A DNA stretch of 64,000 nucleotides from Lachnospiraceae bacterium (GCA_045535935.1 JAZSMO010000012.1:35813-99812); one strand, 5' to 3'. Numbered from the stretch's first letter, positions 12,096 to 59,315 are shown. The notes: generated by a model from the sequence alone, not told the origin. Numbers and translations are program-made.

Positions 12096-13181
12096 ATGAT
12101 TTCAGATATTATCGTAGAACCGCTTCTTACGTGGTACGACCAAAATAAAAGAATATTGCCATGGAGAGAAAACAGGGATCCATATCGCATCTGGGTGTCG
12201 GAGATTATGCTCCAACAGACCCGTGTTGAGGCAGTAAAGCCTTATTATGACCGGTTTGTCAAGGAATTGCCGGATGTCAGAAGCCTTGCACAGGCAGAGG
12301 AAGAAAGGCTTTTGAAATTGTGGGAAGGACTGGGGGATTATAACCGTGTCAAAAATATGCAGAAAGCTGCAAAGATGATTATGGAGAGTTATGGGGGCAA
12401 AATGCCGGAGGAGTATGATCTGCTTTTGCAGCTTCCGGGAATCGGCGCATATACGGCCGGTGCGGTTGCTTCTATTGCATATAATCAGCCGGTAGTGGCA
12501 GTCGACGGCAATGTGCTTCGCATTGTTACAAGACTGACGGCGGATTCAAGTGATATTCTCAGTGAAAAATTTAAACGCCATATACAGCAGGAACTTCTAA
12601 AGATTGTTCCTTGGGTCAGACCCGGTGATTTTAACCAGGCACTGATGGAGCTGGGAGCTACCGTATGTCTCCCGAACGGAGCGCCGAAATGCGATGAGTG
12701 TCCTTGGCATGATATGTGTATGGCCAGAGAACAGGGAAGGCTGGAGGAGATACCCTTTAAAAGGAAAAAGAAAGCCCGTGTGATAGAGAAAAAAACCGTT
12801 CTTTTACTTCAGGACGGAGCGCATACACTGATCCGCAGACGTCCGGATCAGGGACTGTTGGCGGGGCTATATGAATTTCCGCTTTTTGACGGATGGCTGG
12901 ATGAAGAACAGATAAAACAGGAAGTACAAAACCTTGGATGCTCTGCCTTGTATATCAAAGAGTCAGAGACTGCCGTACACATATTTTCTCATAAGGAATG
13001 GCATATGAAGGGGTGGCTTGTGAAGGTGGAAGAGCAGGGATTTTCTCATGGCGCTCTAAAGGAAGGCTGTTACCTGGTGACTTCCCAAACCATACAGTCC
13101 CAATATCCGATTCCAAGTGCTTTTCGTGCGTACACAAAATATGTGGATGTTTTACTTGGCAACGATATTTTTTTGAAGTAA
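12096..13181 (+). CDS. mutY: A/G-specific adenine DNA glycosylase
   Basis: LLTWYDQNKRILPWRE, SEIMLQQTRV, an HhH-GPD region (LPGIGAYTAGAV), an Fe-S cluster Cys pattern (C..PKCDECPW...C) and a NUDIX-like C-terminal domain. Confidence 0.9.
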   Translation: MISDIIVEPLLTWYDQNKRILPWRENRDPYRIWVSEIMLQQTRVEAVKPYYDRFVKELPDVRSLAQAEEERLLKLWEGLGDYNRVKNMQKAAKMIMESYGGKMPEEYDLLLQLPGIGAYTAGAVASIAYNQPVVAVDGNVLRIVTRLTADSSDILSEKFKRHIQQELLKIVPWVRPGDFNQALMELGATVCLPNGAPKCDECPWHDMCMAREQGRLEEIPFKRKKKARVIEKKTVLLLQDGAHTLIRRRPDQGLLAGLYEFPLFDGWLDEEQIKQEVQNLGCSALYIKESETAVHIFSHKEWHMKGWLVKVEEQGFSHGALKEGCYLVTSQTIQSQYPIPSAFRAYTKYVDVLLGNDIFLK

Positions 13182-13220
13182 AATCATTTTGATAAATAAT
13201 AAAAGTAAGAGGTTGGATAT

Positions 13221-14237
13221 ATGAAATTATTGACAATCACCGTACCGTGTTACAATTCGGCGGCGTATATGGAGCGCTGTGTGGATTCACTTCTTGTGGG
13301 CGGTGAAGAGGTAGAAATTATTATAGTCAACGACGGCTCGTCCGATCAGACAGCGCAGATTGCAGATGCGTATGCTCGTAAATATCCGACGATTGTCCGT
13401 GCGATCCACAAGGAAAACGGCGGCCATGGTTCGGCGGTCAATACCGGAATAGAAAATGCTACCGGATTGTATTTTAAAGTGGTGGACAGCGATGACTGGG
13501 TCAGTGAGAAGTCATACAAAGAGATTTTGGAGACCCTGCATGAGCTGGTCGTTTCCGGTAATCAGGTCGACATGTTACTTGCAAATTATGTATATGAAAA
13601 GGAAGGGGAAAAGCGTAAGAAAGTAGTTTCTTTCCGCCGCGCACTTCCGAAGAATGAAATATTCACATGGGATGAAGTGCGTCATTTCAAAAAGACGGAG
13701 TATATTCTCATGCATTCTATTATTTACAGAACGAGACTCCTTCATGAATGCGAACTTGAGCTTCCGGAGCACACGTTCTATGTGGACAATATATTTGCTT
13801 TCAATCCGCTTCCGTATGTCAGAAAGATGTATTATATTGATACAAATTTTTATCGTTATTACATCGGAAGAGAAGATCAGTCGGTCAATGAGAAAGTGAT
13901 GATCGGCCGCATTGACCAGCAGATCAAGGTCAACAAGCTGATGGTAGAATATTTCACGGAGACCAGAATTCCAAACAGGAAGACATATCGCTATATGATC
14001 AAATATCTGGATATTATCACCACGGTTTCTTCCATTATGCTGATCCGTGCGCGCACGGCGGAGGCACTGGAAAAGAAAGAAGAACTTTGGAAATATATCC
14101 GCATCACCAATCCGAGATTGTTCCGCCGTCTTCGCTACGGACTTCTCGGTAACGTAATCAATCTTCCGGGCAAGGGCGGAAGAAGATGCAGTGAGGCAAT
14201 TTATCGTTTGGCACAGAAGGTAATGAAATTTAACTGA
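13221..14237 (+). CDS. glycosyltransferase family 2
   Basis: ITVPCYNSAAYMERCVDSLL, IIIVNDGSSD and VDSDDW (DxD) motifs. Confidence 0.85.
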   Translation: MKLLTITVPCYNSAAYMERCVDSLLVGGEEVEIIIVNDGSSDQTAQIADAYARKYPTIVRAIHKENGGHGSAVNTGIENATGLYFKVVDSDDWVSEKSYKEILETLHELVVSGNQVDMLLANYVYEKEGEKRKKVVSFRRALPKNEIFTWDEVRHFKKTEYILMHSIIYRTRLLHECELELPEHTFYVDNIFAFNPLPYVRKMYYIDTNFYRYYIGREDQSVNEKVMIGRIDQQIKVNKLMVEYFTETRIPNRKTYRYMIKYLDIITTVSSIMLIRARTAEALEKKEELWKYIRITNPRLFRRLRYGLLGNVINLPGKGGRRCSEAIYRLAQKVMKFN

Positions 14238-15322
14238 TGAGTACGATTATTTTTACGATGACACATAAGGCGTTTACGCCGCCGAGTGATCCGATGTTTG
14301 TTCCGCTTCAAGTTGGGAAGGCACTGCGGGAGAACCTCGGCTATATCGGAGATGATACAGGGGATTCCATTTCTGCATGGAATCCTTATTTCAGTGAGCT
14401 TACAGGTATGTACTGGGTGTGGAAAAATTTTAAAACCGACGGAAATGTCGGATTGTGCCATTACCGGCGTTTTCTCATTCATGAGGACGGAAACGTTATC
14501 ACGGAGAAAGAGTACGATACCTTTCTCACAGACTACGATCTGATTACCACCAAGCAGGTTGTGCTCAACAATTCCTACTATGACGGCTATGCGGTCAATC
14601 ATCATATCAAGGATCTGATTGAGACCGGGAATGTGATAAAAGAAATGTATCCGGACTATCATGCGGATTTCGAGCGGATTGTTCACGGAAACCGCACCTA
14701 TTTCGGAAACATGATCGTCTGCAAAAAGACATTGTTTGACGCCTATTCCAAATGGCTGTTTGATATTCTTTTTGAGGTAAAAAAACGCATCGATATCGAG
14801 AATTACGATAATTACAGAAAGCGTGTGTTCGGTTTTATATCCGAGATACTTCTTTTGGTATACGCAGAGCATAACAGGCTGCGTGTCTGTGAATGCAAGG
14901 TCGGAATGCCGGAGGAAAAGGTGGAGACAAGAGAGGTCAAAGAACAACTGAAAGACTTTTTTAGCCGAAAAGATTACAAGGGAGCCGGTGATTGTCTGAG
15001 AATGGCGCTTGCCAAACGGCCCGATATTCTGATGGAGGCTTCGGATGTGGACGGACATCTCATGTTGTCGCTGGAAATCATCACAATCTGTGAACAGGAA
15101 GAAGCATCCGCAAATGAAAATATTTTGAGTAAAATTCAAGATTTTGAGGAACTGCTCCAATGGGTCTGCGAGTTGAACCACCTCGCAGAGCAAAAGACAA
15201 AAGAACGTTTAAAGCCGCATCAGTGGCAAAAAACATGTTGTGAAAAAAAGATTACGCCGCAGGCTTATGAAGTGGCCTGTGTGGTGGCAGAGCGAAAAAG
15301 AAAATTGTCCATGGCAGACTAA
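14237..15322 (+). CDS. DUF4422-domain protein (putative glycosyltransferase)
   Basis: Its start overlaps the GT2 stop (TGATG). FVPLQVGKA...NPYFSELTGMYWVWKN...CHYRRF is characteristic of DUF4422. Confidence 0.7.
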   Translation: MSTIIFTMTHKAFTPPSDPMFVPLQVGKALRENLGYIGDDTGDSISAWNPYFSELTGMYWVWKNFKTDGNVGLCHYRRFLIHEDGNVITEKEYDTFLTDYDLITTKQVVLNNSYYDGYAVNHHIKDLIETGNVIKEMYPDYHADFERIVHGNRTYFGNMIVCKKTLFDAYSKWLFDILFEVKKRIDIENYDNYRKRVFGFISEILLLVYAEHNRLRVCECKVGMPEEKVETREVKEQLKDFFSRKDYKGAGDCLRMALAKRPDILMEASDVDGHLMLSLEIITICEQEEASANENILSKIQDFEELLQWVCELNHLAEQKTKERLKPHQWQKTCCEKKITPQAYEVACVVAERKRKLSMAD

Positions 15323-44311: not shown

Positions 44312-45574
44312 ATGCGAAAATATAATCTGAGACAGGCACAGGTCAGCGATATGGTCGATCGCGGGACGCTTGCTTTGCAGGTGACAAGCTCTATTGGCAG
44401 GATTCCGGTGGAAAATGCCAGAATTCGCATTTCTTACACAGGGGAGCCGGATCGGGTTTTGGAGGAGTTAACAACAAATGACAGTGGGGAGACCGAAAAT
44501 GTTGAATTGGCGGCGCCTCCTATTGAACTGAGTCTTGAACCGTCGGAAATACAGCCGTATTCCGAATATAATATTCTGGTGGATGCGCCGGGATATGAGT
44601 CGGTTATCATTACCGGAAGCGAAATTCTTGCAGACCGGACAGCGGTTCAAAATGTGGTCATGACACCTGTTGAGAGTATGGACGAAGCGGAGGAAGATAT
44701 CGATATTCCGGAACATACGCTGTATGGGGATTATCCGTCCAAAATTCCTGAATCTGAGATTAAACCGATGGCTGAAACGGGAGAAATCGTATTGTCGCGT
44801 GTGGTAATTCCGGAATATGTGGTTGTTCATGATGGAGTTCCTTCGGATGCGACGGCAAATAATTATTATGTGAGATACAAGGATTATATTAAAAATGTTG
44901 TTTCTTCAGAGATTTATGCCACATGGCCGGAGGCTGCCATTTATGCCAATACGCTCTGTATTCTTTCGGTCACTTTGAACCGTGTGTTTACGGAGTGGTA
45001 TCGTGGGAAAGGGTATGATTTTACGATTACAAGCTCTACGGCTTATGATCAGAAGTGGATTTACGGAAGAAATACGTATGAAAATATGGATCGGATTGTG
45101 GATAGTATATTTGCAAACTATCTGTCACGTCCGGGAGTGAAACAGCCGATTTATACCGGTTATTGTGACGGTAACCAGACAAATTGCGACGGACTGAAGC
45201 AGTGGGGAAGCAAGTATCTGGCGGAGGAGGGGTATTCAGCCATAGAGATTATCCGCTATTATTTCGGAAATGACATGTATATCAATACGTCGGAGGCAAT
45301 TGCGGGGATTCCTGCGTCATGGCCGGGATATAATCTGGGAATCGGTGCAAGCGGGGATAAGGTGAGACAGATGCAGAACCAGCTTAGAAGAATTGCACAG
45401 AATTATCCGGCGATACCGGTAATCACGGCAGATGGGGTTTACGGAGAACAGACTGCTGAAGCAGTCCGTACATTCCAAAGAATATTCCGGCTTCCGCAGA
45501 CAGGCATAGTAGATTATTCTACGTGGTATGAGATATCTAATATCTATGTGGGTGTCACACGGATTGCGGAATAA
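44312..45574 (+). CDS. peptidoglycan-binding-domain protein, SleC-like putative cell-wall/spore-cortex hydrolase
   Basis: 420 aa. The N-terminus is a CarboxypepD_reg-like beta module. The central region resembles cortex-lytic enzymes. The C-terminal PG_binding_1 repeat is GDKVRQMQNQLRRIAQNYP...DGVYGEQTAEAVRTFQRIF. Confidence 0.6.
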   Translation: MRKYNLRQAQVSDMVDRGTLALQVTSSIGRIPVENARIRISYTGEPDRVLEELTTNDSGETENVELAAPPIELSLEPSEIQPYSEYNILVDAPGYESVIITGSEILADRTAVQNVVMTPVESMDEAEEDIDIPEHTLYGDYPSKIPESEIKPMAETGEIVLSRVVIPEYVVVHDGVPSDATANNYYVRYKDYIKNVVSSEIYATWPEAAIYANTLCILSVTLNRVFTEWYRGKGYDFTITSSTAYDQKWIYGRNTYENMDRIVDSIFANYLSRPGVKQPIYTGYCDGNQTNCDGLKQWGSKYLAEEGYSAIEIIRYYFGNDMYINTSEAIAGIPASWPGYNLGIGASGDKVRQMQNQLRRIAQNYPAIPVITADGVYGEQTAEAVRTFQRIFRLPQTGIVDYSTWYEISNIYVGVTRIAE

Positions 45575-45576
45575 AA

Positions 45577-45933
45577 TTATAATTGATTTTTGATGGCTTC
45601 GAAGCTCTGCTTGCTGATGATGTGTTCGATTTTGCAGGCATCTTCGATAGCTATATCTTCCGGGACACCGATTTTAATGAGCCAACCCGATAGCACTTCA
45701 TGTCTCTCGAATACCATTTCGGCAATTTCTTTTCCTGCATCGGTAAGATAGATGAATCCTGCGTCGGTTACCGTAATATAGTTTTTCTCGCGAAGATTTT
45801 TCATGGCTATACTGATGCTGGATTTTTTGAAATTTAACTCTGTGGCAATATCAATCGAACGGACAACCGGAAGTTTGCGGCTGAGTACCAGTATGGTTTC
45901 AAGATAATTTTCGGCAGATTCATTTATATGCAT
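45577..45933 (-). CDS. DtxR/MntR-family metal-dependent transcriptional regulator (short form)
   Basis: 118 aa. It has SAENYLETILVL, a winged HTH, and the RHEVL and EDACKIEHIIS metal-ligand regions. Confidence 0.8.
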   Translation of the reverse strand: MHINESAENYLETILVLSRKLPVVRSIDIATELNFKKSSISIAMKNLREKNYITVTDAGFIYLTDAGKEIAEMVFERHEVLSGWLIKIGVPEDIAIEDACKIEHIISKQSFEAIKNQL

Positions 45934-46051
45934 AACAAATTCCCTTCCCTACAAAAACAGATCTTTATAATTATAGAAAAGTATACCACACTAATCGGAA
46001 AAATGGTATACTTACAAAAAGAGTTTCTGCGTGGAAAGGGAGGTGAAACAG

Positions 46052-49000
46052 TTGTACCGTGTAGAGAGATATCTGTCGCTGGAAGATATGCAGCAGGATG
46101 GTGGTGTGCTCGAAGTGTCAGAGAGCAGGATCGAGTTGTCAGTGGGTGAGGATGAGGTCTGTGACGGTGAGATCAGAGTGCGCTCCGGATCGGGACGGGA
46201 GGTACATGTATTTTGTTATTCCGATCACTATCGGATGCAGTGCCGTGTCAATGAATTTATCGGAAGAGAAGGTACATTAAATTATCGTTTTGATGCGGCC
46301 GGTCTGGATGTCGGAAGCATCGTAAAGGGTGAATTTTGTCTGCTTTCCGAGGCGGGAGAATATCATATCCCGTTTTCGGTTACCGTCAGACAGCCTCTTG
46401 CCGGGACGTCGTTGGGAGAAATCCGCAATCTGTTTCACTTTGCAAACCTTGCCAAAGAAAATTGGAAAGAAGCGGTAAAGCTTTTTTATTCCGAGTATTT
46501 TCATATGCTTTTTTACGGGCACGATCATCGTTACTACGATCTCTACCGCGCGTTGTCGGGATGTGCGGGGAATGAGCACAATGTCGATGAGTTTCTTGTC
46601 GGGATACATAAAAAGCAGAAAAACACCTATCATGTGGCAGAGGAAGGATTGCTGTTAAACCATGTGTCGGGAGTGAGACAGGAGTCGCTCACACTGATTT
46701 GTGACGGATGGGGATATATGCATGTAAAAGTCCGCACGCAGGGAGAATTTTTGACTCCGCTGAAGACGAGCCTGTCGGAGGCGGATTTTGACCGGAATAC
46801 ATGCAAGGTGTTGTTTGAAGTGAATGAAGATATGCTTTTCGGTGAATGCGCGACAGGAAGTGTTGTGTTTGAATATGACGGAGGAAGTGTTGAGGTTCCG
46901 GTCATAGTCAACCGTCCGGCGGAGATGTCCCGAAAACAGTTGCAGAGGCAGGAAGAGAAGCTGTTACTTGTACAGCTGATGCACCAGTATATCGCTTGTG
47001 AAACATTGCCTTTGCAGCGCAGTGCCTATTTGAAGGATGCGGAGAAGACAATAGAGAAGATTAATGCCGGATATGGCAGGAATCTGTGGGGAAGATTGTA
47101 TCAGATGCATGTTCTGATAGAGCAGGATCGTGCAAATGAGGCCAAATGGGTTCTTTCCCATATAGAAAATACGCACAAGCAGGAAAATATGGAGCCGGCC
47201 CAATACGGATACTACCTTTACCTGCGAAGTGAACTTGCAGAGGATGAGAGATTTCGCAGAAGCGTCACGGAGCAATTAAAAAAGTTACTCGATGCTAACC
47301 CTAAAGAAACATTTCTCGCCTGTCTTTATATGAAGATGATGGAGGATGTGGTTTGGCAAAAACGACTCACCTTTTATGAGCATCAGTATGCACAGGGGAG
47401 TCGGAGTCCGCTGTTATATCTGGAAGCCTATAAAGTGTTTGCGGAAAGTCCGGCGTATCTTGTGAAGATAGATGAGTTCGAGATCAGCGTGTTGCGATTC
47501 GGAATACGTTATGGGTTATATACGGCGGAGATGGCAGAGAGGGTCGCTGATCTGATTCTCCGGAAGAAGGATATGTCTGCCATGCTTTTCCGTTTTTTGG
47601 GAGAAAGCTACGGAGTGTATCCGCAGGATTCCATGTTGCAGGCGCTTTGCGTTCTGATGATCCGCAGCGGTATGTGCGGACCGGAGTGCTTCGGCTGGTA
47701 TGAACTTGCAGTGCACAAGCAGATGAGAATCACGTCGCTGTATGAATATTATATGAGATCGGCTGATACGAGAGCGGATCGCCTTCCGCCGAGAGCAGTT
47801 CTCATGTATTTTGCATATCGGTGTGACCTGGATGAAAGAAGAATCGCATATCTGTATGCGCTTCTGGTACGGCACAGGGAAGAGATTCCGGAGCTGTTTC
47901 GCCAATATAGGGATAATATAGAACAATTTGCAATTTCAGAACTTGAAAAGGGACTGATCAGTGAGAATCTGGCGGTGATATACCGGTATTTTCTTGCAGA
48001 AGGGGAGACGGTGCTTCCGAAGGACAAAATACAAAAGGTGGCCTTTCGCCATTTGATCAAGGTGCACAGGGACGGAATTGCAAATGTGATTGTCGTACAG
48101 GACAAATTAAAACAGGAAACGGCCTACCCGATTGAGAAAGACCGTGCGTATGTGGATTGCTATACACCGGATTATGTCGTTGTTCTTGAGGATGCAGAAG
48201 GAAACCGTTACTGTGACGAAGCCGCTTGGACCGATATCCAATTGATGCCGGTGGAGAAGCCGGCGATGTATCTGCCCCAGCAACCGGTGACCAATATCGG
48301 AATTGCGCTTTATCAGACAAATATAGGTGGCAATCCGGAGCAGGCCGATCCGGCGCTTTGGCCGATATATGAGCAGCTGGCGGTTTCTTCGCGGGTGGAT
48401 GAAGGATATCGCTGTGAGGTCGCAACCCGATTGTTACGGTTGTATTTTGACAATGAGAAATACGATGAGATGCACAGGATTTTGAAATCGTATGATGTAT
48501 CTGCTGTCACGTCGTCTGAGCGTGCTGAGGTGGTACGCTACCTGGTTTATCTGGAGCAGGATGCACAGGCACTGGATATTTTGTACAATTATGGATTTGA
48601 AAATGTATCGGCGAAGGTACTCGCCCGGTTGATCGTAAGAATCCTGGAGACCGAACCGCTGTTTGACGGAAGGCTGTCGGCGCTCGTGTACTATACATTT
48701 AAGCTTGGGAAATATACACAGGATATGTTGCTGTATCTTTGCCGATATTTTGAAGGGTCACTGAAACAGATGCGTGATATATGGCGGGCGGCGGCCGGTT
48801 TTGATGTGGATGCATCCCGCATTGCGGAGCGGATTCTTCAGGCGTATTTGTTTTCTCGTGCCTATCTGGCGGGGATAGCGGATGTGTTTGAGTACTATAT
48901 GTCGCACAGGAAAAGAGACAGCGTGGTCAGATGTTATCTTCGTGCAATGGCATATCGCTATTTTGTGAAGCAGCAGGTTGTTTCGCCGGAAGTATTTACG

Positions 49001-49588
49001 GCAATGGAAAATCTTCTTTGTAACAGCAGTGAGACGGATGATGTGAGCAAGGTGGCATATTTACATTATATGGCTACCGAAACAGACAGTTACAGTGACA
49101 GGCAAAAAATGTTGATCACGGAACTTGTCAATGAGCTTATTTCGGAAAAACAGTATGTCCCGTTCCTTTCCTCTTTTACAGCGTTTATTCCATGGCTTCG
49201 CCCGTATGCAGAACTGTCGTATCTGGAATACCGGACGGCTCCGGGAAGTGTGGTGACCTTGCATTATCTGCAGGAAGGCCGGGAAGAACAATACTGCCAG
49301 AAGAAATTGGATGAAATTTGTGCCGGTTATTTCTGTCACAACTTTGTTTTGTTTTTCGGCCAGCGTCTGCAATATTATTTTACGGAGAGTAATGACGGGG
49401 AACGAAAACTGACAGAGAGCGGCTTTTTGGAAAAGAGCGATATGACCGGAGAGGAAAGTGAGAGCAGATACGGTCTTCTCAATGATATTGTGATGTGTGA
49501 TGCGTTGGGAGATGAGAGGACGAAGCAGGAGCTTATTTCGAGATACAAAAAGGAGTCCCTTCGGACGGAGTTACTATTTGGAGAATAA
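46052..49588 (+). CDS. large uncharacterised protein: two N-terminal beta-sandwich-like modules, about 800 aa helical-repeat region, beta-rich C-terminus
   Basis: ORF 46031..49588. The likely start is TTG 46052, 6 nt after GGGAGGTG. I recognise no catalytic motif and see no TM helix. It is the first gene of a coupled four-gene operon. Confidence 0.7.
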   Translation: MYRVERYLSLEDMQQDGGVLEVSESRIELSVGEDEVCDGEIRVRSGSGREVHVFCYSDHYRMQCRVNEFIGREGTLNYRFDAAGLDVGSIVKGEFCLLSEAGEYHIPFSVTVRQPLAGTSLGEIRNLFHFANLAKENWKEAVKLFYSEYFHMLFYGHDHRYYDLYRALSGCAGNEHNVDEFLVGIHKKQKNTYHVAEEGLLLNHVSGVRQESLTLICDGWGYMHVKVRTQGEFLTPLKTSLSEADFDRNTCKVLFEVNEDMLFGECATGSVVFEYDGGSVEVPVIVNRPAEMSRKQLQRQEEKLLLVQLMHQYIACETLPLQRSAYLKDAEKTIEKINAGYGRNLWGRLYQMHVLIEQDRANEAKWVLSHIENTHKQENMEPAQYGYYLYLRSELAEDERFRRSVTEQLKKLLDANPKETFLACLYMKMMEDVVWQKRLTFYEHQYAQGSRSPLLYLEAYKVFAESPAYLVKIDEFEISVLRFGIRYGLYTAEMAERVADLILRKKDMSAMLFRFLGESYGVYPQDSMLQALCVLMIRSGMCGPECFGWYELAVHKQMRITSLYEYYMRSADTRADRLPPRAVLMYFAYRCDLDERRIAYLYALLVRHREEIPELFRQYRDNIEQFAISELEKGLISENLAVIYRYFLAEGETVLPKDKIQKVAFRHLIKVHRDGIANVIVVQDKLKQETAYPIEKDRAYVDCYTPDYVVVLEDAEGNRYCDEAAWTDIQLMPVEKPAMYLPQQPVTNIGIALYQTNIGGNPEQADPALWPIYEQLAVSSRVDEGYRCEVATRLLRLYFDNEKYDEMHRILKSYDVSAVTSSERAEVVRYLVYLEQDAQALDILYNYGFENVSAKVLARLIVRILETEPLFDGRLSALVYYTFKLGKYTQDMLLYLCRYFEGSLKQMRDIWRAAAGFDVDASRIAERILQAYLFSRAYLAGIADVFEYYMSHRKRDSVVRCYLRAMAYRYFVKQQVVSPEVFTAMENLLCNSSETDDVSKVAYLHYMATETDSYSDRQKMLITELVNELISEKQYVPFLSSFTAFIPWLRPYAELSYLEYRTAPGSVVTLHYLQEGREEQYCQKKLDEICAGYFCHNFVLFFGQRLQYYFTESNDGERKLTESGFLEKSDMTGEESESRYGLLNDIVMCDALGDERTKQELISRYKKESLRTELLFGE

Positions 49589-49591
49589 AAA

Positions 49592-50887
49592 GTGGATGTT
49601 GTAATCGGATATGATATAAATGAATATTACGCACAGATTTCCTATGCAGGACCGGGGCAGGAACCTGAGACGCTGGAATTTCCGGCGTTTAAGGAGGAGG
49701 GGAATATCGAGACGGCTCTTTGCAAACGCCATGGAGTAAATCAGTGGTTTTGCGGAAAGGAAGCAGTCAAAAAAGGGGTTTCCGGAGATGGGACGCTGGT
49801 GGAGCATTTGTGGACTCTGCTCGGCGAGCAGGAAACAATTCTTATTGAAAAAAAAGAGTACCGGACGGCCGAGCTTTGCAACCTTTTTCTGGGAAGGACG
49901 CTTACCTGGGCATTGGGACGTCTGGAAGAAATCTACAAAGAACCGGTCCATGTCAGGGCGTTGATGCTTTCTTCCGAGAATTACAAAGATATCATGCGCA
50001 AGCAGGCAGATGTTTTGACGGCCGCACTTCCGGTGCCGCCGGAACGCATCTTTTTTCAAGGACATGAAGACAGTCTGTATGCGTATATGGTACATCAGCC
50101 GGAGAGACTGAGAGGCTATGAAACGGGCGTGTTTGACCTGACCGGAGAGACAATGGTGTCCTATCGTGTCACAATGAACCACCGAACACAGCCGATTGTC
50201 ACTACCGTAGAGAAGCAACCGGTTTTGGAGCTTGTAAAAAAGAAACATTACCCGTCGATTATGGAACATGACCGCTGCCTTGCGCAGCTTGATTTGCAGC
50301 TGAAGGCCTATGTGGAAGCATTTACGCAGGGAAGGATTGTGACAAGTCTTTATCTGATCGGAGACGGATTTCAAGGGGATTGGTACAAAGAAAGCCTGAA
50401 AGTGCTGTGCCGCAATCGGAAAGTATATGCAGGAAACAATCTGTTCGGAAAAGGCGCCTGCTACAGTGCGATAGAAAAAATATGGCCGACGGAAGATTAC
50501 GCCAATTTCCTGTTTATGGGGCGTGATATGCTTCGTTATAATGTGGGGGTATCTTTGCAAAACCACGACGGAGAAGAGTATTATCCTCTGTTGGATGCCG
50601 GGACGAACTGGTACGACGCAAAGTCCGAGATTACATTTATGATGGAAGATCCGGAATCGGTGGAACTATTGATTACACCGATCAGCGGAACCGGTGCGTA
50701 CACGGAAACGCTTTGTCTTGAACCTTTGCCTAAACGGCCGTTTCGCAGCTATCGGATGACGCTCACGGCACAAATGCAATCAGAAGAAAATCTTTATATC
50801 TCTATTCAGGATGAGGGATTTGGTGAGCTGTATCCCAAAGTACCTCTCGGTATGACTTATGATCTTACACTCGGAGGAAATAAATGA
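49592..50887 (+). CDS. HSP70/actin-fold protein with degenerate nucleotide-binding motifs
   Basis: The GTG start lies 3 nt after the upstream stop, with a GGAGA SD. It is collinear with the DnaK NBD: VVIGYDINEYYAQIS (phosphate-1), ALMLSSENY...RIFFQGHEDSLYAY, GVFDLTGETMVSY (phosphate-2), LYLIGDGFQ (adenosine), NNLFGKGACYSA. Confidence 0.7.
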   Translation: MDVVIGYDINEYYAQISYAGPGQEPETLEFPAFKEEGNIETALCKRHGVNQWFCGKEAVKKGVSGDGTLVEHLWTLLGEQETILIEKKEYRTAELCNLFLGRTLTWALGRLEEIYKEPVHVRALMLSSENYKDIMRKQADVLTAALPVPPERIFFQGHEDSLYAYMVHQPERLRGYETGVFDLTGETMVSYRVTMNHRTQPIVTTVEKQPVLELVKKKHYPSIMEHDRCLAQLDLQLKAYVEAFTQGRIVTSLYLIGDGFQGDWYKESLKVLCRNRKVYAGNNLFGKGACYSAIEKIWPTEDYANFLFMGRDMLRYNVGVSLQNHDGEEYYPLLDAGTNWYDAKSEITFMMEDPESVELLITPISGTGAYTETLCLEPLPKRPFRSYRMTLTAQMQSEENLYISIQDEGFGELYPKVPLGMTYDLTLGGNK

Positions 50888-51657
50888 GTAAACTATATAC
50901 CTGTATAGGTAAAACGGCGCAAAAACCATATAGTATCCTGTCGGGCAAAGTAAATGTCTATACATTGGAGGAAATCTGCTTTTGTATCTGTGACAGGACA
51001 GACCTTCTGGACGATACATTCCTAAGTGGCGGGCTTGCAGAATTTGTGAGAACGCAGCTCGGACTGGATGATCTGGCGCAGAATCTGGACAGAGTGCTGG
51101 AACAAGGCTGTCTTTTGCATGAGTTTTGTGATATGATTCTCTCGTATGCGGCATATCCGGATCAGGGAATACGTCGAAAGGTCGTGGAACAGATCAGAGA
51201 GAATCAGGAGCTTTCCGTTGTGGACAGACTTGTTCGCAGGGCCGATACTTACCATAGGGAAAAGGAGTATTACAAAGCACAAAAAGCTTATCGAAACCTT
51301 CTTCTTATGGAGGAGGTGCAGCAGGATTTTGCTTTGACGGCGCAGTTGTATGATAAGCTGGGATGCGTGGCGGCAAAGATGTTTCATTATGAAACGGCGG
51401 GATATTGCTTTGAGAAGAGCTGCAGATTTGTTGAAAATGCGCAGGTGCGCAAAAAGTACATGCTGTGTATGCGTCTCACGATGCCACGGGAGAAATATAT
51501 GAACCGGGTAATGCAGCAGGAAGATTGCGGACAATGGATCGCCGAGGTCGAACAGGCTTATGAGACGGCGGATATACATGCGCAGCAGTATTGGAAGGAT
51601 AACACGGCGGATATGAATCAGATCAAAGAGGAGTTCTGCCGGATGGTATTGGAGTAA
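50884..51657 (+). CDS. uncharacterised helical (TPR-like) protein
   Basis: 257 aa. Its ATG overlaps the upstream TGA (ATGA). It contains a TPR-like segment YYKAQKAYRNLLLMEE...LYDKLGCVAAKMFHYETAGYCFEKS. Confidence 0.65.
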   Translation: MSKLYTCIGKTAQKPYSILSGKVNVYTLEEICFCICDRTDLLDDTFLSGGLAEFVRTQLGLDDLAQNLDRVLEQGCLLHEFCDMILSYAAYPDQGIRRKVVEQIRENQELSVVDRLVRRADTYHREKEYYKAQKAYRNLLLMEEVQQDFALTAQLYDKLGCVAAKMFHYETAGYCFEKSCRFVENAQVRKKYMLCMRLTMPREKYMNRVMQQEDCGQWIAEVEQAYETADIHAQQYWKDNTADMNQIKEEFCRMVLE

Positions 51658-51659
51658 GT

Positions 51660-52865
51660 ATGAGTTTCTGGGAAAAATTGTTTAAAAGAGTAAACAAATA
51701 CAGAAATATCGATGAGATGATGGACGAGGAACTCCGTCCTGATGAGGAGGACGGCTATATCGTATCCCCGGATCAGATCGATATAAAAAATTCCGGCGAC
51801 AGAGAGCGATATGTGCTCAGTTTGCTGGAACAGATTGCAGATGCATCGGTGCAGATTGAATCCTACAAGGAAGAGTACAGTACCGTCAACCGTTATCTGC
51901 AGGATACGGAGGATTTGGAGTATATTCGCGGAGAAGACAAAAACAGTCTCATGGAATATGCCAAGGCAATCAGTCTTTTGGAAAAAGATAAGACCAAATA
52001 TGAAGAGAAAAAACAGCGGCTTGCAGATGACGATTTCATCCGCATGGAAAAATTGGAAGAAAACGCAGAAGAAGGCATCCGAAAGCTGACGGAGGCGGAG
52101 GAATACCAACAGGCAATCCGCAGTGATTTAATGCGGCTTGAAAATGAGAAACAGGCCTGCATGTTCCGGAAACAGGAGGCGGCTGCGGCGATGGAAAATC
52201 TTCGCGGAATGGCGATTATTTGTACCGTGGCTTTGTTTGCCTGCATGGGAATGCTTATTTTTATGCAGTTTGTGCTGGAAATGAAAACGCTGGTCGGTTA
52301 TATACTGACAGCATCGGTTGCGGCTTTGGCGCTTACGGCTATGTACATGAAATACGTCGAAGCGGTGAGTGAAAAGAAGCGTTCTTCTCATAGTCTGAAC
52401 AAAGTTATCCTTTTGCAGAACAGAGTTAAAATCCGCTATGTGAACAACACCAATCTTGTGGATTATCTATATATGAAGTATGGGGTTTCTTCGGCAAAAG
52501 AACTGACACAGATATGGGGACGATACCAGTCTGAAAAGGAGGAGCGGGCCCGGATCAAAGAAACCATGAAAGACCTTTCGTTTACACAGGAGCAGCTGGT
52601 CCGTCTTCTGCGCAAGTACAATTTGTATGACCCGGTCATCTGGCTGCATCAGGTGGATGCGATTTTGGATCCGAAGGAAATGGTGGAGGTGCGCCATGCA
52701 CTGATTGCCAGAAGACAAAAAATCCGCAAGCAGATGGAATTCAATACCGAGAATGCGGAAAGTGCCCAGCAGCTGATCAGAGACTTGGTGGGAGAGTATC
52801 CGCAGTATGCAAAAGAAATATTGAAGATGGTTTCCGATTATGAGGACAAATACCCGTCATCCTAA
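51660..52865 (+). CDS. uncharacterised coiled-coil membrane protein (two central TM helices)
   Basis: 401 aa, starting 2 nt after the upstream stop. The N-terminal 180 aa or so is charged heptad-like sequence. A TM hairpin follows (GMAIICTVALFACMGMLIFMQFVL / LVGYILTASVAALALTAMYM). The C-terminal 170 aa or so is helical. Confidence 0.65.
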   Translation: MSFWEKLFKRVNKYRNIDEMMDEELRPDEEDGYIVSPDQIDIKNSGDRERYVLSLLEQIADASVQIESYKEEYSTVNRYLQDTEDLEYIRGEDKNSLMEYAKAISLLEKDKTKYEEKKQRLADDDFIRMEKLEENAEEGIRKLTEAEEYQQAIRSDLMRLENEKQACMFRKQEAAAAMENLRGMAIICTVALFACMGMLIFMQFVLEMKTLVGYILTASVAALALTAMYMKYVEAVSEKKRSSHSLNKVILLQNRVKIRYVNNTNLVDYLYMKYGVSSAKELTQIWGRYQSEKEERARIKETMKDLSFTQEQLVRLLRKYNLYDPVIWLHQVDAILDPKEMVEVRHALIARRQKIRKQMEFNTENAESAQQLIRDLVGEYPQYAKEILKMVSDYEDKYPSS

Positions 52866-52951
52866 AAAGATGGATTGACATGAAATGGATGACGTGATAA
52901 CATTACAGCGTATTCGATTTAGTCTGCTAAAGCAGAAAAGAGGAGGAAAAA

Positions 52952-53773
52952 ATGAAAAAATTACTTGCTTTATTATTATGTGTGACAATGACGGCTTTCA
53001 TGCTGACAGGTTGCGGTGGGGCTTCGGAAGAATCCGGAACAGCTTCCGCAGAAGGTGAAAGAACAACATTTACCGTTGGTTTCGATGCAGAATTTCCACC
53101 ATACGGATATATGGATGACAATGGAGAATATGTAGGATTTGACCTTTCTCTTGCACAGGAAGTGTGTAACAGAAACGGTTGGGAGCTTGTAAAACAGCCG
53201 ATCAACTGGGATACCAAAGACATGGAGCTTTCTTCCGGCGCAATCGATTGTATCTGGAACGGATTTACGATCAACGGACGTGAAGATGATTATACATGGT
53301 CTGTACCATATGTAGACAACAGTCAGGTATTTGTTGTGGCAGCAGATTCCGGTATTGCTGCGCAGGCAGACCTCGCCGGAAAAACGGTTGCGGTACAGGC
53401 AGATTCATCTGCACTTGCAGCACTGAACGATGAGGAAAACACAGCTTTGACAGAGAGCTTTGCTTCACTGAACCAGTTTGCAGATTACAATACAGCTTTT
53501 ATGGATCTTGAAGCCGGCGCTGTGGATGCGGTTGCTATGGATATCGGTGTTGCGAATTTTCAGATGGAATCCAGAGAAGCAGGAAAATTCATTATTTTAG
53601 ATGAATATCTTTCGACAGAACAGTACGGCGTAGGCTTCCTTCTCGGGAATGAAGCGCTGAGAGATCAGGTGCAGAAGACATTGCTTGAGATGGTGGAAGA
53701 CGGTACTTTTGCTAAGATCGCAGAAGAATGGGGACTTAGCGATGTAGTTTGTCTTAAGGCTGCTGCAGAATAA
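52952..53773 (+). CDS. amino-acid ABC transporter substrate-binding lipoprotein
   Basis: It has a lipobox LTGCGG and type-3 SBP motifs (FTVGFDAEFPPYGY, DCIWNGFT). Confidence 0.88.
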   Translation: MKKLLALLLCVTMTAFMLTGCGGASEESGTASAEGERTTFTVGFDAEFPPYGYMDDNGEYVGFDLSLAQEVCNRNGWELVKQPINWDTKDMELSSGAIDCIWNGFTINGREDDYTWSVPYVDNSQVFVVAADSGIAAQADLAGKTVAVQADSSALAALNDEENTALTESFASLNQFADYNTAFMDLEAGAVDAVAMDIGVANFQMESREAGKFIILDEYLSTEQYGVGFLLGNEALRDQVQKTLLEMVEDGTFAKIAEEWGLSDVVCLKAAAE

Positions 53774-57220: not shown

Positions 57221-58717
57221 ATGAAGAAAAACAGCATTCCGAAACAGCTTTTACAGGCTGGGATGACTTTGGCGGACCGCAGATATCGGGTGGATGAACT
57301 GATTGGCGATAACGGTCTGACTGTCACATATAAGGGATATGACACCTTCCGCAAAAAGATTGTCGTAATCCGGGAGCTTTTCCCGCAGTCCATATTGAAC
57401 AGAGATATAGACCATGATTACAAGGTCGAGTGCAAAAAGATGTCGGATGAAGAGTTGTTTCAAAGTATGAAGGAACACATGATCCGCAGAGCCAAAAAGT
57501 TGATCGGATTGTATCCGGTGGACGGAATTGTAAATGTGTTGACTTATCTTGAGGAGCGAGAGACGGTCTATGTGATCGAGGAATATGTGCAGGGCCAGAC
57601 ATTAGAAAATAAACTGTGGAAGAGACACAGTGCCAAGTTTTTGCCGGAGGATCTCATGCAGTACCTGCTTCCTGTGATGGAAACATTGATGCGTCTTCAC
57701 GCACAGGGGATGTTTCACGGCAGTGTGTATCCGGAAAATATAATCCTTACTGCGGACGGAAAGGTATTGCTGGCAGATATGGTGAATCCGATAGAGGATG
57801 TGTCAGCGCCGCAGCTCGGAGACATTAAGATTCGCAAGGATGCATATTCTCCGGTGGAATTATACGTCCCGGAGGCAAAGAGAGGACCGTCTGCGGACAT
57901 CTATGAAGTGTCAGCAATTTTTTACCGTTACGCGACGGGAGAGCCGCTTCCTGTTTATTATGACAGAGTCAATGAGGAAAAGAAAACAGAAGATCCGCTT
58001 CATATGCAGACAAGGGTTATGAAGTTCCAGAGTGAGGCGATTATGAAAGGAACGGCAGTTTATGACTTTGAACGCTATGAGACGATGGAGCAGCTAAGAG
58101 ATGCGCTTTGCCCTGAGGATGTGGATTATGAGCATCTGAATGCAAAGATGATGGAGGCAAAGACTTTCTCCAAGGAAGATTTATGGTACAAACACGGGAA
58201 AAGAGCCAGAAATAAATATGTGTTTACGGTTGCGGCGATTCTGATCGTGGCAGTGATTGCTCTGGGACCGGGACTGACGGACGTCGGGAAAAGCGTTTTG
58301 ATTAACCGATTTTATCAAAAATTTTCCGAAGCGGATATGGCAAAGCAGTTTGTTATGGTGGCCGGAATGTCCAAGACGGAGCGTGATTTGTACACAAACA
58401 ATTATGTGGATGTGGATCGTACACTTTCCGACGAAGAAAATTCGGAACAGATGGAGATCAAATATTATGATTTCCAGTTGGAAAAATATATTACAAATGA
58501 AAAGTTCGATACGACGAAAACTTATTACGAATATATGAAAATTGATTATCGTCAGAATGAGGTATGGGTCAACTATATATCTGACATGAAAAATGTACAG
58601 ACGACGATGAAGTTGGTGCCGAACCGGGATGGTAAATACGAAGTCAAGACCATATCTGTAGATAAGTATGGGGAGTCGGAAGAAGAAATCATTTATGTGA
58701 ATTACACAAAAAAATAA
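57221..58717 (+). CDS. membrane-anchored Hanks-type kinase-fold protein, predicted pseudokinase
   Basis: 498 aa. The kinase fold is recognisable (IGDNGLTVTYKG, YVIEEYVQGQTL, SPVE, SADIYEV). However VAIK reads VVIR and HRDxKPEN reads HGSVYPEN. One TM helix lies near residues 335-355 and a C-terminal domain of about 140 aa follows. Confidence 0.7.
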   Translation: MKKNSIPKQLLQAGMTLADRRYRVDELIGDNGLTVTYKGYDTFRKKIVVIRELFPQSILNRDIDHDYKVECKKMSDEELFQSMKEHMIRRAKKLIGLYPVDGIVNVLTYLEERETVYVIEEYVQGQTLENKLWKRHSAKFLPEDLMQYLLPVMETLMRLHAQGMFHGSVYPENIILTADGKVLLADMVNPIEDVSAPQLGDIKIRKDAYSPVELYVPEAKRGPSADIYEVSAIFYRYATGEPLPVYYDRVNEEKKTEDPLHMQTRVMKFQSEAIMKGTAVYDFERYETMEQLRDALCPEDVDYEHLNAKMMEAKTFSKEDLWYKHGKRARNKYVFTVAAILIVAVIALGPGLTDVGKSVLINRFYQKFSEADMAKQFVMVAGMSKTERDLYTNNYVDVDRTLSDEENSEQMEIKYYDFQLEKYITNEKFDTTKTYYEYMKIDYRQNEVWVNYISDMKNVQTTMKLVPNRDGKYEVKTISVDKYGESEEEIIYVNYTKK

Positions 58718-58790
58718 AAATGTTTTGAAAAATACAGAGAAATGGTATATACTGTCCTAAGATGTGTTTTGCAAAAGCAGGACAGAGCAA

Positions 58791-59315
58791 ATGAGTAAGG
58801 AGCAAAATGAAATGCAGTTATTAGAAAAATGGCGCGGTATGGCGTATTCTGAAAAAGCAAATAAAGGAGATCTGCAGAAGTTATGGCAGAAATATTTCCG
58901 CCTGGAAAAAGAGATGTATGCGAAACTTCTTGAAAATCCGGACGAGGAAGTAAAAGGCCCGGTAAGAGATCTTGCGAAAAAATATGATGTGGATATTATG
59001 ACCATGACAGGATTTCTGGATGGTATCAATGACTCACTCGTTGAGCCGAATCCGATCGAGGAGATGACAGAGGATACAGAAGTATCTTTAAAATTTGACA
59101 AAGAACTTCTTTACAAAAACATGGTTGCTGCTGAGGCAGACTGGTTGTACGGTCTTCCGCAGTGGGAAAAGATCTTTGATGAAGAAAAACGCAAAGAACT
59201 TTACAAAGAGCAGAAGAGATCTACAACCATCGTAAAGGAAGAAAGAATCTATCCAAACGATCCGTGTCCATGCGGTAGTGGTAAAAAGTACAAAAAATGT
59301 TGTGGAAAAAATTAA
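58791..59315 (+). CDS. SEC-C metal-binding-motif protein
   Basis: The C-terminus is [18 protein letters not shown] chose the start at ATG 58791, because ATG 58764 lies only about 12 nt 3' of the -10-like TATACT and so too close to the probable TSS. Confidence 0.7.

Follow-up and report, generated by a model that had tools for sequence, protein, structure and literature searches.

A degenerate Hsp70 homologue at the core of an undescribed, co-conserved gene quartet in Lachnospiraceae

Repurposed Hsp70 proteins are known from eukaryotes: in the yeast ribosome-associated complex (RAC), Ssz1, an atypical Hsp70 with a truncated substrate-binding domain (SBD), is a stable structural subunit that holds the peptide of its partner as a pseudo-substrate. 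For prokaryotes there have as yet been only predictions of such repurposing, in defence systems of the McrBC type, where CnuD of the type III CoCoNuT systems has a degenerate Hsp70-like nucleotide-binding domain (NBD) and SBD and is predicted to bind, and barely to hydrolyse, ATP (PMC11090510). Here we analyse a 64,000-nucleotide stretch of DNA from a Lachnospiraceae bacterium (GCA_045535935.1 JAZSMO010000012.1:35813-99812; the whole stretch is called the window below, and positions are counted from its first letter) and describe within it four adjacent genes, A, B, C and D, the second of which encodes a distant and degenerate relative of Hsp70. The components have known folds and the families of A and B are already catalogued as DUFs; together the genes are an undescribed, co-conserved four-gene system around a degenerate Hsp70.

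The four open reading frames (ORFs) lie on the plus strand, as do all features given below unless stated otherwise, are separated in the window by gaps of 3, -4 and 2 nt, and amount to about 2,270 codons: gene A (46031-49588; 1185 aa counted from a GTG at 46031) encodes a DUF5717 scaffold protein, gene B (49592-50887; 431 aa, GTG start) a DUF5716_C protein, gene C (50884-51657; 257 aa, ATG start) an N-terminal domain followed by tetratricopeptide repeats (TPRs), and gene D (51660-52865; 401 aa, ATG start) a coiled coil with a transmembrane (TM) hairpin. Searches against Pfam revealed that A and B are high-scoring members of functionless families: A matches DUF5717_N (PF18984; E 2e-234; score 780.8 bits, cut-off 25; model positions 12-871 of 875) and DUF5717 (PF18983; E 1e-79; score 267.9 bits, cut-off 25; model positions 1-306 of 306), and B matches DUF5716_C (PF18980; E 9e-80; score 268.3 bits, cut-off 34.7; aa 124-416). 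A preliminary description of this locus, made from the DNA alone, had linked such proteins to Pfam DUF families, and correctly so. The entries are, however, silent on the operon, on the Hsp70 kinship of B as a whole, and on C and D, which belong to no family: C was assigned neither an NCBIfam nor a specific Pfam family, and D no Pfam family, its 20 homologues giving only sub-threshold matches to DUF2207_C (11 of 20, best E 3.5e-4) and scattered noise.

Wider searches gave no better-described relative. NCBIfam holds no specific family for A, B or C, no PADLOC-DB family matches any of A-D at E<=0.1, and the literature searched does not mention DUF5717, names DUF5716 only in an unrelated study, and contains nothing relevant on the system. 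Apart from the Pfam DUFs, then, NCBIfam, PADLOC and the sequence and profile searches of the PDB with A and B returned no confident match; as the preliminary description had supposed, no characterised system matches A-B-C-D. By analogy, CnuD is the closest described prokaryotic counterpart of B, and going by their description the CoCoNuT proteins CnuD and CnuCD combine, as the proteins here do, Hsp70-like NBD and SBD with helical repeats, immunoglobulin (Ig)-like domains and coiled coils (PMC11090510). By contrast, A-D are without the McrB GTPase, DUF2357, nuclease, CSD and helicase of those systems, and they sit in a syntenic housekeeping context rather than in a defence island; neither the Pfam searches of A-D nor the structural model of A revealed a McrB-type GTPase, DUF2357, a nuclease or another effector domain.

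The kinship of B with Hsp70 is seen in its fold. Modelling B with AlphaFold2 (pLDDT 90.4) revealed an NBD-like domain of the actin/Hsp70 fold with a reduced subdomain IIB (49592-50506, aa 1-305), followed by an SBDbeta-like sandwich (50507-50887, aa 306-426) and then the stop codon, all structure after aa 305 being beta. Foldseek matched this model to DnaK/Hsp70 structures in the PDB over both NBD and SBDbeta (E 2e-18 to 1e-13, query-normalised TM-score 0.5-0.6, identity 11-13%), and chains of the Ssz1-Zuo1 RAC (6sr6, 5mb9 and 7x3k) were among the top matches. B thus shares with DnaK the two-domain NBD and SBDbeta fold, and in our own reading also strand motifs of the SBDbeta. In support of the latter, hhalign aligned the B profile to a hand-entered sequence of E. 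coli DnaK only weakly, placing B 348-412 on DnaK 425-495 (65 columns, E 0.077), which is consistent with the fold result. At the level of sequence membership B yields no HSP70 match in Pfam at E<=0.01, and no PDB match at E<=10 by sequence or profile.

Inspection of the alignment columns of 43 B homologues revealed what has been kept and what has been lost. Acidic residues persist: position D8 is D or E in 43/43, E160 is E or D in 43/43, and D182 is D or E in 35/43; we read D8 and E160 as probable counterparts of DnaK D8 and E171. The adenosine-side motifs LIGDGF and GNNLFSKGA, which may likewise correspond to DnaK LVGGQT and NPDEAVAIGAA, are nearly invariant, and a hydrophobic motif resembling the interdomain linker is retained. 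By contrast, the DnaK loops DxGTTNS and DLGGGTFD are absent throughout the family, with GTT and GGGT replaced: the consensus there reads D-L-[NG]-[EN]-x-[FY] and D-L-T-G-E-T, with a second G in 15 of the 43 and no GGG. B further differs from DnaK in that subdomain IIB is reduced, in the model, to about one long helix; in that the alpha-helical lid is missing, since B ends at aa 431 and the model has no helices past aa 305; and in that the C-terminus bears no EEVD-type tail. Nor does the operon supply the usual partners: Pfam searches of A, C and D found no DnaJ or GrpE domain at E<=0.01, leaving the operon without J-protein or exchange factor, and no heat-shock operator, CIRCE or CtsR, was found in any of 72 upstream regions with 3-4 mismatches allowed. 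Together, these data establish B as a distant Hsp70 homologue that fails the canonical tests of sequence membership, phosphate loops, lid and co-chaperones; the model, the Foldseek matches and the column counts all bear out the preliminary description of B as a degenerate HSP70-like protein with replaced phosphate loops.

The four genes travel together. Scanning one genome per GTDB species returned at least 572 stretches encoding a relative of B, and the counts of loci given throughout refer to the best 80 of these. All 80 belong to Lachnospiraceae, including Butyrivibrio, Kineothrix, Eisenbergiella and many metagenome-assembled genomes, and B is accompanied by A in 79/80, by C in 79/80 and by D in 77/80, with one miss each for A, C and D explained by a contig end. 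Across a range of 33-69% identity in B, the order is always A-B-C-D on one strand with close spacing. Moreover, two more distant loci, L081 (MT835486.1) and L082 (MT835719.1), carry the quartet at 23-28% identity, and the flanks of L081 (mgsA, a phosphodiester glycosidase gene and valS) differ wholly from those of the other loci; the four genes therefore survive complete turnover of their surroundings. The co-conservation on which the preliminary description had staked its proposal is thus borne out, in these distant loci as well.

Homologue searches returned 226 proteins for B, 270 for A and 2421 for D, which together with the Pfam matches of A and B marks the ORFs as genuine genes, and an exhaustive profile search resolved the B family into 1,799 clusters at 50% identity. 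Median identity was 44% for D, 36% for B, 32% for A and 26% for C, as compared to about 68% for flanking genes. The locus is thus ancient and has been passed on vertically, despite the fast evolution of A, B and C, and we take the assembly to be specific to Lachnospiraceae and their close relatives.

C has a conserved N-terminal domain (aa 1-100) in which G9, P15, E29 and E30 are invariant in the alignment, followed by two to three TPRs at about aa 110-200 and a variable helical tail. The single sequence scores below the Pfam TPR gathering threshold (20.4 against 27 bits), while the family profile matches consensus and engineered TPR proteins in the PDB over positions of about 110-200 (E 2e-14 to 1e-5), in agreement with the small TPR-like protein first proposed. 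At least eight lineages, whose mutual identity is only 24-35%, have B and C joined as a single protein of 685-765 aa with C at the C-terminus of B. Because the fusion recurs, it argues for a direct physical association of B and C. In this respect B, an atypical Hsp70 in an apparently stable partnership, resembles Ssz1 with Zuo1; the likeness is one of function by analogy, as the partner of B is a TPR protein and not a J-protein, the system includes an anchor in the membrane as well as a scaffold of 135 kDa, and no link to the ribosome is indicated.

The scaffold in question is A. An AlphaFold2 model built on 38 homologues (mean pLDDT 86.5) revealed four Ig-like sandwiches and two TPR-like solenoids: an N-terminal module (46109-46912) comprises an Ig/ASH-like sandwich (aa 27-120), a helical insert (aa 134-191) and a second sandwich (aa 199-294); it is followed by a first alpha-solenoid of TPR-like repeats (46931-48043, aa 301-671), a third beta-sandwich (48047-48241, aa 673-737), a second alpha-solenoid (48296-49210, aa 756-1060, also matched by Foldseek), and a fourth beta-sandwich with a C-terminal helical hairpin (49217-49579, aa 1063-1134 and 1146-1183), which together correspond to the Pfam DUF5717 region. 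Invariant residues of A are mainly aromatic or aliphatic and cluster in the best-conserved patch of the protein, G129-Y153 (NLFHFANLA), within the helical insert; this cluster suggests a binding interface and not an active site. Sequence and profile searches of the PDB with A found nothing at E<=10, and the model contains no enzyme fold and no alpha/beta P-loop domain.

Searching the PDB with the A model by Foldseek returned tandem Ig/ASH-like domains of ciliary central-pair proteins (E 7e-7 to 1e-5), whereas matches in BFVD were generic Ig/BACON-like and of little information. The solenoids superpose on the large TPR scaffolds Ski3, Ctr9, Naa15, Prp6 and subunits of IFT-A (E 5e-6 to 1e-4), and A is therefore likely to be a platform for protein-protein interaction. 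The similarity is that of generic repeats, with TM-scores of 0.09-0.15 of the query and 9-14% identity, and those scaffolds are without the four interspersed beta-sandwiches of A. The model and the Foldseek matches agree with the beta-sandwich and helical-repeat scaffold of the preliminary description, A being built of interaction folds only.

Among the four proteins, D alone contains hydrophobic segments (Kyte-Doolittle windows >=1.6). Its N-terminal tip (51660-51695) is amphipathic and basic, M-[GS]-F-W-x-x-L-F-K-R with a family pattern MGFxxxLFxxxK; its hydrophobic moment ranks at the 97th percentile within D, and even the distant homologues of L081 and L082 retain the motif. A coiled coil of about 140 residues with heptad-like conservation follows (51792-52199, aa about 45-180), and then a TM hairpin (52206-52355, aa about 183-232) whose helices, at about aa 183-205 and 210-232, are separated by a 4-residue loop. 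The flanks of the hairpin are rich in K and R on both sides, from which the positive-inside rule would place both large domains of D in the cytoplasm. The remainder (52404-52865, up to the stop codon) comprises a juxtamembrane motif, VILLQNxVKIRYVNNTNLxDYLYxKYG, and a C-terminal helical domain; the motif (aa 249-275) is the best-conserved stretch of the operon, with I250, L252, N254, N262, N265, L266, Y269 and K273 invariant. D aa 55-190 matched a Rad50-coil-like NCBIfam model far under its cut-off (E 1.6e-5), which we judge a coiled-coil artefact, and the D profile found in the PDB coiled-coil proteins only, at non-significant E-values of 0.07-7. Alignment and hydropathy scan thus support the first sketch of D as a coiled-coil protein with a central TM hairpin.

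Amphipathic membrane-targeting helices are known from MinD, with its C-terminal KGFLKRLFGG-type motif, and from FtsA. The tip of D is likewise short, amphipathic and basic with a high hydrophobic moment; unlike those helices, it is N-terminal and belongs to a protein already furnished with a TM hairpin, and it could equally be a ligand for an SBDbeta or a TPR groove. It would thus serve in membrane binding or as a peptide ligand, and we prefer neither.

The account that we tentatively favour is a housekeeping scaffold or adaptor, tethered to the cytoplasmic face of the membrane and containing a structural pseudo-Hsp70, in which A-D would all bind each other. D would be the anchor, with its hairpin in the membrane and its coiled coil and C-terminal domain in the cytoplasm, while its N-terminal tip would provide a second contact, with the membrane or with a partner; hydrophobic and basic, this tip is also a candidate for the segment clamped by B. 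B and C would form an obligate unit of a lid-less Hsp70 homologue and a small TPR protein. By analogy with Ssz1 in RAC, B would act as a structural Hsp70 whose SBDbeta holds a linear peptide of a partner without client cycling, and its nucleotide turnover would be slow at most; we propose this mechanism because B is without lid and phosphate loops and has a reduced subdomain IIB, and because the operon offers neither J-protein nor exchange factor. A would be the platform that recruits further proteins, making the whole a non-enzymatic adaptor, for instance in envelope or membrane-protein organisation. The stoichiometric complex and the membrane tether of the preliminary description would fit this account, the pairing of B with C being the contact that the recurrent fusions support.

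Several observations weigh against such a scaffold. Firstly, the retention in B of D8, E160, mostly D182 and the linker-like motif would leave ATP-driven cycling possible; secondly, D is absent nearby in two of the 80 loci, L050 and L069, next to an intact A-B-C; thirdly, A, B and C diverge fast (26-36% identity against about 68% in the flanks), which is unusual for core housekeeping machinery. Where D would be expected, L050 (Eisenbergiella porci, 12145-14400) and L069 (12132-13700) carry unrelated short ORFs.

The first of these points leads to a different view, of a genuine Hsp70 machine, driven by ATP and tethered to the membrane, that works as a chaperone or targeting station for nascent membrane or secreted clients and in which B would cycle on hydrophobic and basic segments, C would be the co-chaperone, A would present clients and D would dock the machine. 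Eukaryotic Hsp70 docks in a parallel manner on the TPR receptors Tom70 and Sec72. The Hsp70 NBD and SBDbeta fold of B, the retained equivalents of the acidic catalytic-site residues, the strand motifs that parallel the SBDbeta of DnaK (by the weak hhalign match) and the TPR partner fused to B in many lineages would all suit a chaperone, as would the gene for HtpG (Hsp90) found within 6 kb upstream of A in 29/80 loci, if that is more than synteny. Set against this, both phosphate loops are without their glycines and threonines, B has no lid and no EEVD-type tail, its subdomain IIB has shrunk, and the operon encodes neither a J-domain nor a GrpE-like protein and shows no CIRCE or CtsR operator; we consider a chaperone rather unlikely. 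The same superfamily fold could instead let B form actin-like filaments, and the operon would then encode a cytoskeletal or division element attached to the membrane, akin to FtsA or MreB with their anchors, an idea that the tip of D (similar to a membrane-targeting sequence), its coiled coil and membrane anchor, and the family-wide, housekeeping look of the operon would accommodate. However, Foldseek puts Hsp70s first over both NBD and SBD, and an attached SBDbeta together with lost nucleotide loops is contrary to ATP-dependent polymerisation; a filament is improbable. That the genes are mere syntenic neighbours with unrelated functions is scarcely credible: although the two loci without D would be compatible with it, the order and spacing survive a complete change of flanks, fusions of B with C recur, and the junctions in the window are overlapping or near zero, each with an internal Shine-Dalgarno.

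The preliminary description had also listed defence, sporulation and stress among the possible roles, and these fare worse than the scaffold. An anti-phage or conflict system, with A, B and C sensing the invader and the two-TM protein D as membrane-disrupting effector, finds some encouragement in the fast evolution of A, B and C, in one D homologue with a weak SLATT_4 match (E 0.022), and in the combination of B with helical repeats, Ig-like domains and coiled coils, which recalls CnuD/CnuC architectures (PMC11090510). Yet there is no McrB GTPase, DUF2357, nuclease or effector domain and no PADLOC match, the operon keeps a stable syntenic site amid pur genes and transporters across 33-69% identity, it is absent from plasmids and genuine phages, D is the slowest-evolving of the four, and the putative promoter element is of sigma-A type; a defence role is highly improbable, since the context is syntenic and housekeeping. 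Very unlikely, too, is a sporulation, germination or metal-stress module. A gene for a SpoIID-like protein with PG_binding_1 lies within 10 kb in 42/80 loci, often adjacent (40-42/80 when counted in the upstream flank), and in the closest clade A and an MntR-like gene diverge from a common palindromic promoter region. The SpoIID-like gene nevertheless occurs on either strand and is missing from all the Butyrivibrio loci among the 80, a non-sporulating genus which keeps A-B-C-D, sigma-E/K-type -10 motifs are not enriched, the promoter element is again of sigma-A type, and MntR is adjacent in 4/80 loci only.

Within the window, the A/B (GGAGaaTAAaaaGTG), B/C (GGAGGaaataaATGA) and C/D (GGAGTAAgtATG) junctions were read directly; at B/C the stop codon of B overlaps C in an ATGA. 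The starts of B, C and D each have their own Shine-Dalgarno, located within the preceding gene. Near-zero gaps are a trait of this clade, as compared to 10-80 nt in most other loci: tight clustering is family-wide, whereas strict stop/start coupling is not. The translational coupling deduced in the preliminary description therefore agrees with the gaps and Shine-Dalgarnos of the window and does not extend to most other loci. For A, an alternative TTG start at 46052, with GGGAGGTG 5' of it, would give 1178 aa; since the four closest relatives have an ATG at exactly this position and the NCBI gene call is also of 1178 aa, TTG 46052 is likely the true start. On the minus strand, an ORF of 330 aa overlaps B (49574-50566) and is most likely spurious, because B on the plus strand has hundreds of homologues. 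An Rfam scan of 45400-53100 found no RNA element.

Between the mntR-like gene and A lies a perfect 9-nt inverted repeat, AGTATACCA...TGGTATACT, which is invariant in the window and in loci L001-L004. One arm (TGGTATACT, 46004-46012) is the putative extended -10 of the operon; the opposite arm (AGTATACCA, 45980-45988) reads toward the mntR-like gene. Each of the divergent genes could thus have one arm as its extended -10 (TGnTATACT), a promoter function suggested by the sequence; alternatively, the MntR-like repressor could use the repeat as its operator. In 32/72 loci the 120 nt upstream of A contain TGGTATA, and the element is likely of sigma-A type; SigD, SigH and SigE/K motifs showed no enrichment upstream of A.

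The divergent gene itself (45577-45933, minus strand) encodes a repressor of the MntR/DtxR family, 118 aa with a helix-turn-helix and a metal-binding/dimerisation domain, scoring under the NCBIfam equivalog cut-offs. Its family agrees with the metal-dependent repressor of the preliminary description; it is no part of the system, however, and we rejected it as an integral regulator, as it is adjacent in only 4/80 loci, those of the four closest relatives. Beyond it lies the SpoIID-like neighbour (44312-45574), a protein of 420 aa that combines a weakly matching SpoIID-like region with PG_binding_1 at its C-terminus, has no obvious signal peptide, is 58-87% identical across Lachnospiraceae and may, at a guess, be a SleC-like cortex-lytic enzyme.

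Downstream of the operon, purB is found in 51/80 loci, purF in 41/80 and purC in 29/80 (pur genes including purA, 17-51/80), and an amino-acid ABC transporter is nearby in 31/80; the HtpG and pur neighbours probably reflect conserved synteny, not a functional link. Further along the window, past the genes for the ABC transporter and a HAD hydrolase, come a Ser/Thr protein kinase-like gene (498 aa) and, after it, one for a 183-aa protein with a terminal SEC-C zinc-binding motif (57221-59315, plus strand). A plasmid origin of the locus was rejected for want of any plasmid match. A phage origin was rejected too: the "phage" matches appear, from the flanks of L081, to be bacterial DNA, and among 2.9 million IMG/VR contigs there was a single match, at a contig edge. 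Five "Bacteriophage sp." matches in GenBank are unverified virome scaffolds, and L081 and L082 come from human faecal viromes. L081 also carries valS, mgsA and a MoxR-like AAA ATPase, and both L081 and L082 are apparently chromosomal fragments of bacteria.

Lachnospiraceae are among the most abundant butyrate producers of the human gut and the rumen, and to our knowledge the cell biology peculiar to this family is still poorly characterised. The operon is a large coding investment held together in hundreds of species without an enzyme domain, and it presents a bacterial Hsp70 repurposed as a degenerate, lid-less and probably structural module that is fused to a TPR protein or forms a pair with it. 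An Hsp70 without a lid, fused to TPRs, spread through the family and provided with an anchor of its own and a 135 kDa platform would surprise specialists in Hsp70 evolution and bacterial cell biology. If the structural reading is true, the system would be what RAC and other assemblies with a structural Hsp70 are in eukaryotes, and no homologous system has been described. Solving its role would assign a function to two DUFs of Pfam and to two proteins without a family, and could expose a lineage-specific, membrane-associated process: with some reserve, we suggest that A-D may be an unrecognised Lachnospiraceae-wide machine tethered to the membrane, in which a pseudo-Hsp70/TPR unit is a permanent subunit of a 135 kDa Ig/solenoid platform, serving a housekeeping process (for instance protein sorting, or the organisation of membrane or envelope) that other Firmicutes handle otherwise.

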